Shown: positions 3 to 31,556 of the stretch, piece after piece
Position numbering within the stretch: the first letter of the stretch is position 1
How the letters are laid out: every line of letters starts with the position of its first letter
From: a virus
Lineage: Duplodnaviria > Caudoviricetes
Reading direction: 5' to 3' (one strand)
IMG/VR virus record: IMGVR_UViG_3300012001_000025
Coordinates: 1 to 34,893 of that record
DNA length: 34,893 nt
Notes under the pieces: model-generated
The model's input: the letters and a program-made list of their open reading frames with translations, nothing else
Database searches by the model: none
Told to the model about the DNA's origin: nothing
Translations under genes and position numbers: made by a program

Positions 3-3000
3 GTGAAGCTGCAGAGGCTGTTCCAGCAGCAGATGGACGTGCGTTGGCGCAACCTGCGCAACATGGCCTCCGCAGCCACGTCGAAGCGATTCGGTGGCGC
101 GAGCGCCGAGACCGTGGCGCACGCCGTCGCCACCGGCGACGATCCGGTACGCGCATTCCAGTCGTGGATCGACGAGGCGATGCGTCAGGTAGTGCTCGGT
201 GTCCTCCCGATGTCGTGGATGGCACCCTTCATCTCGCGAGCCGCAGCCATGGCGGGAGAGCGAGCCTCCGCGCTGACCGCAGGCGATGCCCTCCGTCCTG
301 CGGTCAGTCGCGTGAGGACCCTGCAGACCATGGCGGTGACTGAGCTTCAGGGAATCTGCGAGGCGGTGTCGCAGCAGTGCGTCCGCGCGCTGGCGTCCGG
401 AATGCTGTCGCGGCAGACACCAAACCAGATTGCACGGGCGATGGCCAGCGTCATTGACACCGTCGGCAAGACACGCAGCCAGCAACTTGCGTCCTTCATC
501 ACCGTGCGCGCGTTCGCTGCGTCGACGCTGGATCATCTTCGTGCCGCTGGCGTGAGCCACGTCGGCATCCTAGCGGAGCGAGTCAGGAAGTCTGGCCCCG
601 GCCTCCTGACTCGCGACGCTGCCAAGAAGAAGGCAAAGAAGAAAAAGTGGGCGGAGCCCTCCGATCTGGTCGAGGTGCTCACCGCTGGCGACGACGACGT
701 GTGCCCGACCTGCGAGGACATCGCGGACGAGGGACCGTACACGCTGGACGACGCCGAGGGCCTCATCCCCGCGCACCCGAACTGCGTACTACCGGGGATG
801 GCCGTCGAGGGCAACGTGCTCGCTGCACTAAAATCCAGTTATTCTGGTCCAGCCCTTGAGATCGAGACGCGTAGTGGTAGACGGCTCAGCGTTACCGGAC
901 AGCACCCCATACTGACGTCGCTTGGTTTCGTTGCGGCTAAGGACCTTCGTGAGGGTATGAAGCTTATTTGCAAGGGCACGGATGTCAGGTGGTCCTTCAC
1001 ATCTCTTGTTGACGCGAACAATAACAACGGTCCAATCTTGATTGAGCAAATATACGATACGCTTCGAGCTCAGGGACTTTGCTCTGTCAGTCCAAGCGGT
1101 GACGATCTCCACGGCGACGCGAGGCACATCGATGGTGATGTCGATATTGTAGCGGTAGACTGGCGTTTGCTGTGTAATGTCCACTCGCAGTCGGAGAAGG
1201 GCCGCAGCAAGCTCGTTCTCCCAAGCGCCTACGCGAGACTTGTTGAACTGGTTCAATTTACTACGGTTAATCAGTTCTTTGCGCGAAGCCTTGCGACCAC
1301 GCGTAGCATCCCAAGCACCAGAGCACTGGTGCTCAATCAATTTGCGCGATTGCTTCAAGACACTCCACTTCAGGTACTCAGCCTCGGATCGTCCGCGCAC
1401 ACCAATATTAAGTTTCCGAAAATGCTTGATCAGTACGTTGCGTTCTATTCCACTTTGGTCCGAGATCTGTTTGAGCGAGATGCCGGACTCGTACTGCTTG
1501 ACCAATCTGGCAAGTTGTCCACGCTTGAAGATTACCTGCGGTCTACCGGCATTTCTAATGACGCGTTTCAGTATATTGTACACAACGCGTCGTCGTATCT
1601 TCAATTTCTCGACGATCTTGTGTCCAGACAACCCGGACTTGTAGAGTTCGATGATGTGATCTCGCTGCGCTCGTTCCATTATAACGGCCCCGTGTATGAC
1701 TTGCAAACCACTACGGGCAGCATGGTTGCACAGGGCATCTTTGAAAGCAACTGCCGCTGCGCCTTCGTGCCGTCCGCCGACGCGCGCTACGCGCACGACG
1801 CCGGTCCCGACGACGAGGCACGTGGACCAGACGGAAAATGGATAACAGGTGGTGGCAAGTCAGATAAATTTGTTGTTGCATATCACGGTACATTGATGAG
1901 TGCAGCTAAATCCATCGCAAAGAAGGGTTTCGTTCTAAAGGATTACAATAAGAATTCCCGGTTTGAGGATGCTGGTCAATACTACAAGGGTGAACGTGGT
2001 CACGCCATATTTGTCACAAATAATAAACAGACGGCTATACTTTATGCAAAAAGTCGCGCGGATGTAGGTCTTCCAAAGGCAATTGGAATTGTTGAGTTGC
2101 ACATTCCCAAAAATGAATGGAAAAAATTTAAGACTGATACGCTTGGAAATAAGGACAACACTGATAAAAAGGCTAAGAATGCTTACACAACTAAAATAAT
2201 TCCACCTGAATGGGTGCACAAAGTTTCCGGATATCCAGATTGGTACAAATTAGGGGGACCTCTTGGGAATCCAGTTAAAATAAAAGATGCAGAATTTGTC
2301 ACGATGTATCTAGTCACTGATCTTGCTTCACACGTTGTGCACGATGCCGGTCCCGACGACGAGGATCGCGACGACCACGGGCGATGGACCAGTGGCGGCG
2401 ACAGCAGTTTTGCGAAGGCCTCCAAGGAACGTCGCAGATTGAGCAATGATCCAGAGGGCAAGGAAGAAGTAGAAGACAAGTACGGCCTGAAGCACCTGAA
2501 GGTGAACCTAGCCATGGACAAGATGGATGAGGTTTATGCGGACACAGCCAAGCAGACGCGTGACAAGGAATTGACAAGTGATGAACAGAAGACCGTTCAC
2601 GCATACCAGACCAAGAAGGCACTGTCAGAGAAGTTGAACGCCAAATTGCGCGCAGGAGGAGAGCTCGACGACAAGCAGACATCGGTCGTCAAGATCCTGG
2701 ACAACGTGCTGAAGAATTCCTCGCTCAAGGAAGATCACACGCTTTACCGAGGACTCACTGGAAGGGCTGGTCGCGATCTAGTGTCTGGATTGAAGCCGGG
2801 AGACAAGTTGAGGGATGCTGGTTTCATGTCCACGAGTCTGGACGAGGACACGGCGCGCGGTTTCTCGCAGGGGTCAAAGGATCAAGCAGATCTTCACGTC
2901 ATGCGAATTCTCGCCGACAAGGGTCAGCAGGCTCTGTTGACCGGTGACAGAGGTGGCGCATCAGTGTCGGATCAGGAGTATGAGACCATACTGCCGAGGA

Positions 3001-6000
3001 ATACTTCCCTTGAGTTCAACGGCAAGTCGACCAAGGGTGACATAACGTACTACGACTTCAAGATCGCCAGTAAGAAGCTGACGAAGGACTACGACCCCGA
3101 CCAGCCGCGCGACGATCACGGCATGTGGGCCGGTGGCTTCGCCGGTGGTCCTCCGCTCAAGACGTGGCAGCCGCCGCAGTCCAACGAGGAGTGGAAGAGC
3201 GTCGCCGGGCAGGACCACACCATCGGCGAGCCCCCGGTCCCGCAGCCGAAGACGTCGTCCTACACATACACCGACAAGCAGACCGGGCAGCCGGTCACCA
3301 GGACCAGCACCAGCCGCGTCTCGAGCGGCGTGATCATGCGCGAGAAGGACGGACGCACGTGGATCATCAAGCCGACCAATGGCTACGGCGGCTATCGCTA
3401 CACCTTCCCCAAGGGCGGCGTCGAGGAGGGCCTGCACCCGCAGGCCAACGCCATCAAGGAGGCGTTCGAGGAGACCGGCCTCAAGGCGCGCATCACCGGC
3501 TTTGCCGGGGACTACGCGGGCGACACCGGGGTGACGCGCATGTATCACGCGGTGCGCGAGACCGGCCATCCCAAGGACAAGGGCTGGGAGACCGAGAAGG
3601 TGCGGCTCGCGCATCCCGCCGAGCTGCCGCTGCTGCTCAATCGCAGCCGCGACAAGAAGATCGCTGGGCAACACATCAATCCGGCGATGCTGGACCAAGG
3701 ACGACTATGACCCGGACGAGCCGCGCGACGACCACGGCATGTGGACCAGCGGCGGCGGCGCGGCGGGCTTCGCCAACAACGCTGAAGGAGGGCGGCGTCC
3801 AGCACGCGGTCGAGCACGACCCGGTCACCAACCTGCACAGCGTCAAGGTGCCGAAGAACGATGACCTGCCGTCACTGGAGGCCATAGCCAAGAGCCACGA
3901 GGATTTCTCGCACAAGGTCAAGGGTCTGCACAGCAACCACTACTTCTTCAAGGGCAAGGATGACGTCGGTCACGGCGACAAGTCGGCCAAGTACCCCGAC
4001 CACGTCATCAAGTTCAAGCAGCTATTGAACGAGAACGGCGTGGAGCACACGCACAACGATGCACCGTCGATGGGTGGTCACGACTTCCACGTTGAGACGC
4101 ACAACAAGGATTATGCGCTGGGACTCGCCAAGGATCACGGCATCCCGGTTCACCAGACGACGCAGACTGCGTCTGGTGCAGTCATCACGCTGCCGGAGAA
4201 GGCACCATCGAAGTCCGGTGAGGTATTGTCCGGTCACGGTGGCGAAGCTCCCATCGACATGCAGGACCTCACCAAAGTAAGTGGCAAGAAGGGCAGCAAC
4301 GAGGGCGGTGTCTACAAGGATGAGAAGAGTCTTTATCCTAAATCACAGTACTACATCAAGCAGCCCGCGACCCCCGACCACGTGCAGAACGAGCTGCTGA
4401 CCGCGCGGCTGTACCAGCTCGCGGGCGTCAAGACGCTGAACTACGTCCCGGTCAAGGGAGGCAATCACGTCGCCACCGAGATGGAGGACCTCGCCAAGAA
4501 CAATGTGTCGCAGCTGTCGTCGGTCGAGCGCATGCAGGCGCAGCACGACTTCGCGGTGCACGCTTGGCTGGCGAACTGGGACGCGGCTGGCATGGGCGGC
4601 GACAACGTCGGCGTGCGCAAGAACGGCGACGTGGTGACGCTCGACACCGGCGGTGGCCTGAAGTACCGCGCGCAGGGCGAGCCGAAGGGCATCGCCTTCG
4701 GGAATACAGTGACCGAAGTCGATACTCTCCGGGACAGCGCCAAGAACCACGACGCGGCCAAGCTGTACGGCACCATGTCCAACGGCGAGCTGATCGCCAG
4801 CATGAAGCGCGTGGTGGATATCCCGAACAGCAAGATCGCCAACACCATCAACGCGGCAATGCCGATGGCTCCGTACGACGAGCGCACGGCCCTCGTGGAC
4901 AAGATGATTGCCCGCAAGAACGACCTCGCGTCGCAGATGCAGAAGCTGACCAGTGCGTGGGCACAGCACCAGTCGACCGCGCAGACGATCGTGTCCGCAC
5001 CAAAGACCAGCACGACGCCCTCCGTCGTCGATCATCCGGCAAAGGCATTCCTGTCGCAGGTCAAGGGGACCAGCGCCGAGCGCGTGACTTGGCGCAAGGA
5101 ACTCGCCGCTACCCCGACGCCTTTTACTCCTGGCATGAAGCTAGTGAAGAGCGATCTTCAGCACAAGATCGTCGCATCCTTCTGGAAGCAGCACGGCAAG
5201 CTGACCGGCGACAAGAAGACGCAGATAGCGACCAAGCTGGCGCAGTACGCCAAGAAGTACGGCATGACCAACCCGTTGACCGCACCCACGGTCGCCGCAC
5301 CGCCCGCACCCAAGCCAGTCTTCGGCAAGGCATCGCCAACGCCACCTCTCGCGCACGCCGACATTGTCGCACCGAAGCCGTCGTCCATCGCCACTCAGGC
5401 CGAGCTCGAGAAGGCCAAGAAGAGCGTCAAGCTGCAGATGCAGTACGTGCCGGGGGCACAGGGACTCGAGAGCCACCCGGAGGCGCAGAAGCTGCTCGCC
5501 GCGTTCAACCAGAAGTACGAGGGCAAGTCGCTCGACACGCAATCACTCCACGAGAAGGTCGCCGACTTCAAGAAGCTGCAGAGCGACATGATCCCACTGA
5601 TGAGTGAGCAGCAGAAGCAGGCTGCGGCATCCGCGATCGTGGAGAAGGCCGCGCAATCCGAGAAGCTGGCCAAGGACAAGGCCGCTCTCGAGGCCAAGAT
5701 GAACGACCCCGAGGTGCAGAAGCACTACGAGGTGCTGAAGTCAATCGGTGCCGGGCAATATACACAGGGACTAGACAAGCTGATCGCGGAGCACGGCCTC
5801 GCCATCACGCCGGAGGAGGGTGCGTACATCCGCGCCTACGTCGGCAGCCACTACGGCCCGGTCAACGATCAGCTCCGCAAGGGCGTGCTGACCATGGCGC
5901 AGCACAAGTACGCCAACGCGCTGAACGACGCCCTGGCCAAGATGCCGAAGTACGTGGGTAACGTGGAGCGCGGCGCGCACCTGACGCCTGAGGCCTTCAA

Positions 6001-6235
6001 GAAGTACCAACAGGCAGTGGGCGGCGTCGCCGTCGAGCACCAGTTCACCAGCGCGGGCGTCAAGCACAAGCTGTGGGGCGATCACGTGTTCCACATCAAG
6101 AGCAAGAGCGCTGCCGACATTCGCTCGTTCAACTCCGGGGAGGGTGGTGGCGAGGTCGTGTTCCGGGCAGGTAGCAAGTTCCACGTCACGAAGGTAGACA
6201 CACCTAGCAAGCAGATATGGATGGAGGAACTGTGA
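3..6235 (+). CDS. Polyvalent MuF/SPP1 gp7-like head morphogenesis protein (5' end probably outside the window; two apparent +1 frameshifts near 3696 and 3775 join ORFs 3..3710 and 3125..6235)
   Basis: MuF motifs TAGDDDVCPTC and IPAHPN|CRC, followed by ART, ART, NUDIX, kinase-like and ART domains. A fourth linker KDDYDPDEPRDDHGMWTSGG is read in an intermediate frame at 3697-3756 and bridges the two ORFs. Lies upstream of the protease and capsid genes. Confidence 0.85.
783..1751 (+). mobile_element. Intein (323 aa) inserted in the MuF HPN|CRC motif
   Basis: Starts CVLPG (Cys1). Contains block B LSVTGQHPILT (TxxH), GFVAAKDLREG and block F VYDLQT. Ends ESN followed by a +1 Cys. Removal restores PAHPNCRC. 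Visibly lower GC than the upstream flank. Confidence 0.92.
828..1679 (-). CDS. Antisense gene nested in the intein: tandem HTH + NUMOD3-like + Vsr/DUF559-like PD-(D/E)XK nuclease, putative homing endonuclease (283 aa)
   Basis: ATG at 1679 with GGGG 8 nt upstream. HTH-like segments IIELYKSGLSGHKIVEKLKI and VKQYESGISLKQISDQSGI. Basic RGRKASRKELINRS. Nuclease-like ENELAAALLRLRVDITQQTPVYRYNIDITIDVPRVAVEI...LLNQDWTVVIV. Confidence 0.8.
   Translation of the reverse strand: MERAQRDHIIELYKSGLSGHKIVEKLKIRRRVVYNILKRVIRNAGRPQVIFKRGQLARLVKQYESGISLKQISDQSGIERNVLIKHFRKLNIGVRGRSEAEYLKWSVLKQSRKLIEHQCSGAWDATRGRKASRKELINRSKLNQFNKSRVGAWENELAAALLRLRVDITQQTPVYRYNIDITIDVPRVAVEIVTAWTDRAKSLSSKRIVYLLNQDWTVVIVRVNKRCEGPPDIRALANKLHTLTKVLSRNETKRRQYGVLSGNAEPSTTTRLDLKGWTRITGF
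1793..2364 (+). repeat. Direct repeat pair (26 nt, 1 mismatch) at 1793-1818 and 2339-2364 encoding HDAGPDDE
   Basis: gcacga(c/t)gccggtcccgacgacgagg occurs on both sides of the AT-rich ART cassette. Confidence 0.9.
1866..2330 (+). other. PARP-like/H-Y-type ADP-ribosyltransferase-fold domain within the MuF protein
   Basis: VAYHGT...SIAKKGF...GHAIFVTNNKQTAILYA...IVELHIP...IIPPEWV pattern. AT-rich cassette between direct repeats. Confidence 0.6.
2560..3070 (+). other. VIP2/C3-like (R-S-E) ADP-ribosyltransferase domain within the MuF protein
   Basis: LNAKLR...LYRGL...DAGFMSTSLD...QEYETILPRNT: catalytic R, STS and ExE motifs all present. Confidence 0.88.
3087..3744 (+). repeat. Direct repeat pair (42 nt, 4 mismatches) at 3087-3128 and 3703-3744 encoding DYDPD(Q/E)PRDDHGMW
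   Basis: Direct base-by-base comparison. The pair flanks the NUDIX cassette. Confidence 0.9.
3315..3690 (+). other. NUDIX hydrolase domain within the MuF protein
   Basis: SSGVIM...FPKGGVEEGLHPQANAIKEAFEETGL matches the Nudix box GX5EX7(R/K)EUXEEXGU. Confidence 0.9.
4250..4950 (+). other. HipA/PI3-PI4-kinase-like domain within the MuF protein
   Basis: GSNEGGVY...YYIK...NELLTARLYQLAGV...WLANWD...DNV...TLDTG resembles the Gly loop, beta3 Lys, alphaC Glu, catalytic D..N and DxG motifs. Confidence 0.65.
5790..6235 (+). other. Second VIP2-like ADP-ribosyltransferase domain (divergent) at the MuF C-terminus
   Basis: YGPVNDQLR...ALAKMPKY...VERG...FTSAG...GGEVVFRAGSKFHV. The STS and ExE motifs are degenerate. 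Confidence 0.75.
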
Positions 6236-29300: not shown

Positions 29301-29868
29301 CAAATGTGACCTGTTGCTCGTGGATAGCGCATCGCCGCGCTACCCATACGTGCCGCGCAAGATCAACTTCCTCTCGTTCACCAACAACGTCGGTCACCTC
29401 TCGCGCGGCGGACAGGATGGCTGGGGACGTGCATTCTGCAGGGGACTCGGCTACGCCGTTGAGCAGGGATACGACTATGTGGCGCACGTCGAGGGTGACA
29501 GTTTGCTGCACCCCCCGGTCAGCGATATGTTCGCGTGGATGCAGCGCGAGGCAGTCGACGTGATGTCGATTCCGGTGTCGTCGATGCCAAAGTGGATCGA
29601 GACCGGGTTGATGCTGTTCGACGTCCGGTGGTTACAGGACAACAACTTCGTGGAACGATACGACTGGAAGATGCGCAGCCGATACCCGGAACCGGAGGCG
29701 GTGGTCGGGGGTTTGGTTGGTGATTGGACTCGGCTGCCTTGGCGTGGGATGCGCGACGACTTCAATGAGCTGACCGAGGACAACTTGGATGCGCGCGAGT
29801 TGCAGTGGCTGACGCACGCCAAGCTGCCAGTGATGGAGAAATTTGCGGCAAGTGGAGAAGCATCGTGA
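29212..29868 (+). CDS. GT-A glycosyltransferase-like protein (GT2-like)
   Basis: LLLVDSASP...NNVGH...GLGYAVEQGYDYVAHVEGDSLL (ExD at the DxD position). GAGG SD. Confidence 0.65.
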   Translation: MRTLLFATTYVDTPDKMATLKLWIKLSMRDKCDLLLVDSASPRYPYVPRKINFLSFTNNVGHLSRGGQDGWGRAFCRGLGYAVEQGYDYVAHVEGDSLLHPPVSDMFAWMQREAVDVMSIPVSSMPKWIETGLMLFDVRWLQDNNFVERYDWKMRSRYPEPEAVVGGLVGDWTRLPWRGMRDDFNELTEDNLDARELQWLTHAKLPVMEKFAASGEAS

Positions 29869-31556
29869 CACTCAGGTTGAATCTCGGCTGCGGTGACAAC
29901 CGGCTGCCAGCGCCGTGGCAGAACCACGACGCGGACGTGGACATCACTAAGCGCCTGCCTTGGGCGGACAATAGCGTCCGGTTCATCGTGATCGAGCACT
30001 GTGTCGAGCACGTTGATTACTATCAGGCCATCGAGTTCTTCAAGGAGGCGCGACGCGTGCTCGAGATTGGTGGCGTGCTGCGAGTCACCGTGCCGTCGTT
30101 GACGCAGGTGATGAACTGTCAGGACCAGAGCTACTTCGACTGGTTGCACAAGAAGGGGTGGGCACCGACCGCCGACGACCGTGGGGCGATGCACGCGATG
30201 CTGTATTGCCACGGCCACAAGACCGCGTGGAACGCCATGCTGATGGAGGCGACGCTCTATTTTGCCGGGTTTAACGCTCCGCACAAGATGAACCTTGGTT
30301 GGTCCTCGCACCCGGAGCTTCGCGGCATCGAGGGCCACGGCAAGGTGATAGGTGAGAAGTTCAATGCCATCGAGTCGATCACCTTCGAGGCAGCCAAGAT
30401 GACCGGGGACCTCGCGCAAGATTACGATGAGAAGTTCTACGCGATGCACCGTGGCTGGCGCAGCGAATATGACAGTCTGGCTGGCACGCTGGTAGAGTGC
30501 TTGCCAAAGTTCAAGACGGTGGTGGACTTCGGATGTGGCAACGGGTTCATCGTCGATGCGCTGGAGCGACTTGGAAAATCGACGTTGGGCATTGACGGTT
30601 CCAAGAGCGTGCTCAAGTTCAATTCGAAGATACACATCGCCGACATCACCAAGCCTGTGGTCTGCATGGTCAGCGACCTCGTCATCTGCACGGAGGTTGC
30701 CGAGCACGTGGCCGAGCAGTATGCGGATGCGTTGGTGGACAACCTGTGTCGCGCCGCTCGCGCCACAATATTCTTCAGTGCTGCGCAGGCCGGGCACGGT
30801 GGGCACCTGCACCTGAACGAGCAGCCGAGGCAATACTGGATCGACAAATTTGACGCGCGTGGGTTCGATGTGGATGCCGTGGCCACCGACCGCATTGTGT
30901 CTGCGCTGCGCACCAAGAACAATAAAACGTGGTGGTTCGCCGAGAACTCCTTCGTGCTGCGCAGGCGACAGGAACAATTGGACCTCGCCGAGCGACAGCG
31001 TCGCCGGATCGCCATTGTGATCGGCGGCAGCGAGCGGGTGTGGAACGATGTAGAGCTTGCGGAACGTATGTGCAGAGAGAACAACCTCGATCCGGAATAC
31101 TTCGCCGCCAACGACATGATCGAGTTGTTCCCCAAACAGATAGTGGCAGTGACGCTTCATCCAGAAAAGCTGCAGAAGTGGATGAGTCAGCGGCACTCCG
31201 CGAAACACCCGATGCCGTCCGAGGTCTGGTCGCACAATGGCGGCAGCAGGCAGAGCAACCCGCACGTCACGCATCGCTTACAGGACTGGGGCGGCAGCGT
31301 CGGGCTGTTCTGCTACGTGGTAGCGAGGACGCGCGGACACGACCGCGTCATTCTGTGTGGGGTTCCGATGAACAGCGACAACCACTTTGTGCGCAATAGC
31401 AAGTGGACCGCCGTCAGCGCCTTTACCCGCGCGTGGGAAAATCACAAGCTGGAGATGACGCCACACGTGCGTAGCCTGTCGGGCGGCTGGACCGAGGCAC
31501 TGTTTGGACAACCAGACGCGACATGGCTCGACATCAAACAAACGGAGATGACATGA
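29865..31556 (+). CDS. Tandem class I SAM methyltransferases plus a C-terminal Rossmann-like (Maf/DUF115/GT29-like) domain
   Basis: LNLGCG...EHCVEH...RRVLEIGGVLRVTVP; VVDFGCGNG...CTEVAEH...HLNEQP; IAIVIGGS...AANDM...GGSVGL...VILCGVPM. Confidence 0.8.
   Translation: MTLRLNLGCGDNRLPAPWQNHDADVDITKRLPWADNSVRFIVIEHCVEHVDYYQAIEFFKEARRVLEIGGVLRVTVPSLTQVMNCQDQSYFDWLHKKGWAPTADDRGAMHAMLYCHGHKTAWNAMLMEATLYFAGFNAPHKMNLGWSSHPELRGIEGHGKVIGEKFNAIESITFEAAKMTGDLAQDYDEKFYAMHRGWRSEYDSLAGTLVECLPKFKTVVDFGCGNGFIVDALERLGKSTLGIDGSKSVLKFNSKIHIADITKPVVCMVSDLVICTEVAEHVAEQYADALVDNLCRAARATIFFSAAQAGHGGHLHLNEQPRQYWIDKFDARGFDVDAVATDRIVSALRTKNNKTWWFAENSFVLRRRQEQLDLAERQRRRIAIVIGGSERVWNDVELAERMCRENNLDPEYFAANDMIELFPKQIVAVTLHPEKLQKWMSQRHSAKHPMPSEVWSHNGGSRQSNPHVTHRLQDWGGSVGLFCYVVARTRGHDRVILCGVPMNSDNHFVRNSKWTAVSAFTRAWENHKLEMTPHVRSLSGGWTEALFGQPDATWLDIKQTEMT

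Follow-up and report, generated by a model that had tools for sequence, protein, structure and literature searches.

Can a single stretch of phage DNA encode a protein-splicing element on one strand and, on the other, the enzyme that spreads it? The question is raised by the window, i.e. the whole stretch of 34,893 nucleotides that was analysed, in which an intein in a phage MuF-like gene lies opposite an open reading frame (ORF) for a putative nuclease (Table 1). There is a strong likelihood that one strand splices whilst the other carries a selectively maintained gene for a predicted Vsr/DUF559-like homing endonuclease (HEN), and the evidence for each part of this reading is set out below.

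Table 1. Features of the window discussed in the text.
Feature	Position	Strand	Remarks
Window	whole virus record, 34,893 bases		CheckV completeness 43%
N-extein, MuF-like head morphogenesis protein	3..782	+	ends ...IPAHPN; weak PHROG head morphogenesis/portal matches, E 5-7e-4
Intein, 323 aa	783..1751	+	Cys1, block B TGQH (TxxH), block F PVYDL (GPVYDL), terminal Ser-Asn, Cys+1
C-extein	1752..3710	+	CRCAF, then effector-like modules (unknown, ADP-ribosyltransferase, Nudix)
Antisense ORF, 283 aa, predicted HEN	828..1679	-	exact codon register with intein
HTH domain 1, residues 3-44	1548..1673	-	Pfam HTH_23 E 2e-6, above cut-off; helices in model
HTH domain 2, residues 55-89	1413..1517	-	weak Pfam HTH matches; model; family-profile match to 2LVS tandem-HTH
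DUF559/Vsr-like nuclease domain, ~residues 150-260	900..1232	-	E154, Q171, N178, D180, E191, R207
SD-like GGGG	1688..1691	-	8 nt before ATG, spelled by block F Gly-Pro codons; duplex -5.0 kcal vs null mean -2.1, p=0.003
Family-position sigma70-like promoter, TTGCTT-17-AACCAT	1722..1750	-	at chance in window copy (p=0.64); family sum far over null
Second promoter-like site, TTGCAA-17-TATAAT, 10/12	1678..1706	-	-10 overlaps antisense ATG

The intein and its host gene

The window is the structural arm of a tailed phage, with a plus-strand order of MuF-like protein, head maturation protease, major head protein, tail, tape measure and endolysin, and its record is present in four soil DNA runs from one study, with no RNA run listed. 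Directly before the endolysin, an ORF at 29805-31556 has weak methyltransferase PHROG matches. The MuF-like gene, which is followed by the protease and major head genes, may have had its start cut off by the start of the contig. No relatives of the N-extein were found among 600 pattern matches in viral contigs, and its matches in phage records were two haloarchaeal virus hits only. The C-extein likely continues to 6235, with the ORFs 3-3710 and 3125-6235 likely being one MuF polyvalent protein of ~2,070 aa that is broken by record errors, and the joined protein likely holds two ADP-ribosyltransferase (ART) domains and one Nudix domain. The modules at 1797-2330 and 3800-4900 have no Pfam match at E<=1; by eye, the first may be ART-like, and a stretch near 4300-4800 kinase-like. 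Other features of this region are two frame changes, near 3690 and 3780, single-base indels near these positions in the contigs of two runs relative to the record, a linker motif that is repeated in all three frames (1797, 2343, 3087 and 3721), and an AT-rich segment at 1800-2300, with GC as low as 36%.

The intein is translated in frame without a stop between the N-extein (...PAHPN) and the C-extein (CRCAF...), giving the site HPN/CRC, where the slash marks the junction. The features of a class 1 intein are present (Cys1, block B TxxH, block F, terminal Asn, Cys+1 and a conserved in-frame site). Pfam Intein_splicing matches with E 1.7e-8 and 34.9 bits, slightly missing the cut-off of 35.8, and a profile built from six of the sense inteins matches solved inteins. 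Empty HPN/CRC or HPN/CRS alleles occur in four phages, one of them being the Hardycor1 muf gene (HPN/CRC). A penultimate His is usual in class 1 inteins, though it is not required; in the window this residue is Ser, and the 24 cluster representatives (see below) have SN in 14 cases and HN in six. The 323-aa intein that had been called at the MuF HPN/CRC motif is thus upheld by its uninterrupted translation, all of the named motifs and the Intein_splicing match, and the plus-strand precursor would splice by the class 1 route, using Cys1, the block B His, Asn and Cys+1.

The middle of the intein on the sense strand (993-1676) is without a Pfam match at E<=1 and has no recognisable in-frame HEN. 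This agrees with the original prediction, which found no endonuclease motif there and read the segment as an antisense shadow, as does the fact that substitutions in the insert track the antisense frame (see below). Splicing would discard this shadow insert of ~230 aa, which would need only to be free of stops and tolerated.

The gene on the opposite strand

The intein with an antisense ORF in codon register is a real layout. The ORF runs from an ATG at 1679 to a stop at 830-828, and the stop-to-stop frame is longer, at 343 aa with a GTG at 1796. It had been described as lying wholly inside the intein, which is correct, but it is not confined to the insert, covering sense codons 16-70 of the N-terminal splicing region as well.

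The antisense protein has the DUF559/Vsr-like fold with an E..Q..YxxD..AVE core, by matches that lie under curated cut-offs and at a Foldseek E of 0.05. A profile of 14 family sequences matches 3R3P (I-Bth0305I) with E 8.9e-5 and 3HRL (DUF559) with E 1.1e-4, and the window protein alone matches NCBIfam DUF559 with E 4e-4. AlphaFold2, which had been proposed as a check of this strand, gave a pLDDT of 93.4 when run with 139 relatives, with two three-helix HTHs, a helical linker and an alpha/beta domain (single-sequence prediction was unusable past residue 91, pLDDT 43.5). Foldseek returned nothing for the model at E<=0.001; its nuclease rows were 3HRL (probability 1.00, TM 0.80 over the target), 3R3P (0.89) and 1VSR (0.63). 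Both the nuclease core and the two HTH-like segments named in the original prediction are therefore recovered, the second HTH by weak Pfam matches, the model and 2LVS. The NUMOD3-like stretch is not: Pfam NUMOD3 has no match in the protein at E<=1 and none in 14 relatives among the matches listed (25 of 51 families), and the label is a resemblance only.

A full HMMER scan found relatives of the antisense protein in 1241 clusters at E<=1e-3. A word-index search found none at E<=0.001 among 1566 candidates, a blank which, given the HMMER result, reflects the limit of that method's sensitivity. The residues of the putative centre are highly conserved in relatives (D180 in 140/140, E191 in 139/140, E154 in 136/140 and Q171 in 134/140), and the nearly invariant ones are all retained in the window copy. 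In I-Bth0305I, the residues aligned with E154 and D180 are E170 and D196. The EDxHD His (the H213 equivalent) is absent after E191 in the window copy, with a His within nine residues in 52 of the 140 relatives; the second Asp (the D222 column) is absent too, and none of the 140 relatives has Asp there. Judging from the model, the protein would be a Vsr/DUF559 enzyme by fold and should not be filed as EDxHD proper. The nucleases have one or two HTH units, at ~235-250 and 280-300 aa respectively, and intein length follows (L007, L008, L011, L012, L013).

With the antisense protein as query, tblastn matched 94 phage records; among the matches listed are MuF/head or hypothetical genes of phages of Gordonia, Salmonella, Pseudomonas, Vibrio, Aggregatibacter and others. 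The best phage matches lie in Gordonia phages Fosterous and Affeca, in MuF genes with antisense ORFs that are 31% identical to that of the window. The 48 loci examined exclude six duplicates and two loci from the window's own genome (L014, L015); two of the 48 (L039, L041) have no intein end. Both frames are open in all 46 complete loci, window included, the sense frame without a stop and the antisense frame for at least 240 codons, as the original prediction had asked of homologous inteins. These 46 loci, 33 of which were found through sense-strand queries, represent 34 distinct DNAs and 24 clusters at 70%, with one representative per cluster scored; the set is biased towards one sense motif, wide alignments having yielded no usable search pattern. 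The antisense gene is annotated in none of the ten GenBank regions first fetched, so such nucleases are mostly missed. Two loci stand out on the sense strand. In the closest relative (L001 1929-2909, minus strand) the intein begins with Ser1 after HPW and ends in Phe-Gln before Cys, which is unique among the 24 representatives, and in L021 the element sits in another extein context, NYCRH/CKTP as against the usual CRC/CKC.

The register of the two frames, in which sense position 1 is antisense position 3, allows selection to be followed by strand. In five close, ungapped and independent pairs, differences in the insert at sense positions 1/2/3 number 230/64/144 (230 vs 144, p=1e-5). The same pairs give 23/22/81 in the N-extein, 6/4/23 and 6/5/23 (together 12/9/46) in the two ends of the intein that are coded on the sense strand only, and 25/10/32 in the dual-constraint codons 16-70; insert and sense-only ends differ with a Fisher p of 8e-9. 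Substitution polarity is thus reversed in the insert, which is therefore governed by the antisense gene, and the pattern in these sequences indicates that the antisense frame is under purifying selection in the relatives. The per-strand comparison that had been suggested for homologous inteins, made here by codon position, comes out in favour of the antisense frame. The window and its closest relative (L001, 56% identical) show the same trend, at 124-130 vs 102-103, which is not significant alone (p 0.08-0.18).

Expression signals and mobility

On balance we favour a view in which the splicing motifs of the intein double as an expression cassette for the antisense gene. The product would belong to a lineage of Vsr-like enzymes able to cut although they lack the EDxHD His and second Asp, a lineage that would have spread, in MuF genes, among phages of many phyla. 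As read from the sequences, the -35 would come from the junction Asn/Cys codons, and the -10 from block G or from codons immediately preceding it. The YDL codons would provide the SD, and the start would be supplied by the block F His, or by a neighbouring His where that one is lost. The antisense gene would be transcribed from a sigma70-type promoter in the last ~10 codons of the intein and the splice junction. Its translation would begin at an ATG that the sense strand reads as the block F His codon, with an SD in the adjoining codons.

The block F His (H[VI][YF]x[LV]) is CAT, giving an antisense ATG, in 18 of the 18 cluster representatives that have it, compared with 96/219 for the other His codons of the intein and 4/21 for the block B His; in one non-representative (L024) it is CAC, giving a GTG start. 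The codons next to this His spell GAGG-type SDs, with a summed SD energy of -149 vs -49±12 in 300 synonymous shuffles. A sigma70-like pair in the last intein codons and the junction has a summed score of 319 vs 269±5 with extein usage (1000 shuffles) and 273±5 with intein usage (500 shuffles), scores for which the weights were chosen post hoc on sequences already seen, from clusters that share ancestry; the negative control at the N-terminal junction is mildly raised too (265 vs 251±5). The block F His is absent in six clusters, the window among these, and an ATG or GTG then follows 2-5 codons further on.

The window copy has Pro at the usual block F His and its start four codons further on, as does L013. 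The ATG and SD-like GGGG of the original prediction are both in place (1679 and 1691-1688). At the family promoter position, the -10 is AACCAT in the window as against TACGAT, TATAAT or TACCAT in the closest relatives, and the promoter score is at chance. The stronger promoter-like site at 1706-1678 owes its TATAAT to the His-Tyr-Asn codons CAT TAT AAC, which dictate it, and a transcript from this site would begin downstream of the ATG, without the start codon. It is conceivable, if unlikely, that the family works as proposed and the window copy is decaying or silent, its frame intact, its promoter weakened and its expression poor. The altered -10, the loss of the usual block F start and the strong promoter-like site overlapping the ATG would all fit such a copy; however, its 283 codons are free of stops and keep every nearly invariant residue, its SD beats the null (p=0.003) and L013 has the same shifted start.

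With a gene that is expressed, the tandem HTHs would bind, and the centre around D180/E191 would cut or nick, the empty ...HPN/CRC... site in a co-infecting phage or prophage, after which repair of the cut intein-free MuF allele would copy the intein in. The distribution in relatives is homing-like. In Guernseyvirinae, the N-extein is matched by 464 records and the intein by 72, and among nine hand-picked records three are empty and 816 bases shorter. Demigod and LSPA1 have inteins that are 96.6% identical with upstream exteins at 60-77%, and demigod and StyS-sam have identical inteins (100%) with upstream exteins at 84-93%. SaI_NFG_5577, which has the intein, and SP-049, which is empty, are 96-99% identical over the stretch 150-600 bases upstream of the site, with identity falling to 76-77% closer to it. 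This pattern in Salmonella phages, drawn from distant relatives picked by hand, is what homing with co-conversion would leave, and module exchange could mimic part of it. For the window's own gene, the 600 pattern matches in viral contigs included no empty allele, and no joint across the intein occurs in the run contigs, a result that is uninformative either way.

Phages often exchange modules. It is improbable, more so than a silent copy, that the antisense gene yields a genuine DNA-binding protein that is nickase-dead or regulatory, with the intein moving by ordinary recombination between phage head modules. Such a product would account for the lack of conservation of the DG..H...D motif of Vsr/DUF559/EDxHD enzymes, and dual coding alone slows intein divergence; yet no columns are more conserved than those of the acidic active-site residues, identical inteins sit in diverged exteins, and the swap boundary lies close to the site.

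The openness of the antisense frame was rejected as proof of a gene. The probability of no antisense stop is 10^-2.6 with window codon usage, 10^-5.5 with C-extein usage and 10^-1.3 with the intein's own usage, and the N-extein, with one in-register antisense stop in 260 codons, is itself nearly stop-free. This evidence is weak alone, and therefore the case for a gene rests on homology and substitution polarity. That the ORF arose by chance as a shadow of the sense frame, which such easily opened frames might suggest, is refuted to the point of being negligible by the domain matches and confident fold on the antisense strand as against none in the sense middle, the reversed polarity and the 46/46 open loci.

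Comparison with known systems

The notion that one strand splices and the other homes thus fares well, given a conserved and selected HTH plus nuclease gene and a homing-like spread in relatives. The suggestion that went with it, that no description of this architecture was known, does not stand: the window locus is one more case of a published layout. Full actinobacteriophage inteins with anti-sense VSR-like HENs, matching 3R3P, have been reported, with non-canonical inteins in minor capsid proteins (Gosselin, Arsenault, Gogarten; bioRxiv 10.1101/2025.01.02.630785). Beyond that preprint, no other description of the layout was found in literature outside the subscription journals. Older cases cited there are the anti-sense LAGLIDADG inteins of Synechocystis dnaX and a Chloroflexus SpoVR-like protein, in which the HEN likewise lies opposite a full intein and the nuclease family differs from that of the window.

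Other known systems share single parts of the arrangement. The EDxHD enzyme I-Bth0305I (PMC3239194) has an N-terminal HTH-type DNA-binding part and a C-terminal Vsr-like domain, the same order as in the window protein, with E170/D196 corresponding to E154/D180; unlike the latter, it sits in a group I intron, and its N208, H213 and D222 are without counterpart in the window. In fractured genes with split inteins (Dassa 2009; PMC2677866), a free-standing Vsr-like endonuclease gene with its own translation signals lies between the halves. The association of an intein with such a gene and such signals is shared, whereas in those genes all three coding regions share one strand and the intein is in two pieces, and in the window the intein is contiguous and the nuclease antisense. 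Polyvalent proteins in which MuF is joined to enzyme domains that the head likely delivers have been described (PMC5512222); it is only the extein of the window that resembles these, and the text of that article makes no mention of inteins.

The closest likeness is to the inteins of the preprint (bioRxiv 10.1101/2025.01.02.630785), as far as its main text describes them: a full intein, a separate antisense ORF with a helical N-terminal part, a Vsr-like core (residues 144-267 there, ~150-260 in the window), a match to 3R3P, and minor capsid proteins among the hosts, the host gene here being MuF-like. In contrast to its members, the window is a soil metagenome phage with a large, effector-fused MuF, and its ORF overlaps sense codons 16-70 whereas the second ORFs of the preprint typically lie outside the splicing domain. 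The preprint's main text has no mention of promoter or start codon and does not discuss the block F/G signals; the embedded cassette and the reduced active site, if true, are points outside it. As a natural instance of long antiparallel dual coding the family is clean, and since it has members in cultured phages of Salmonella and Gordonia for which matched empty alleles exist, the proposed antisense expression, cleavage and homing are directly testable.
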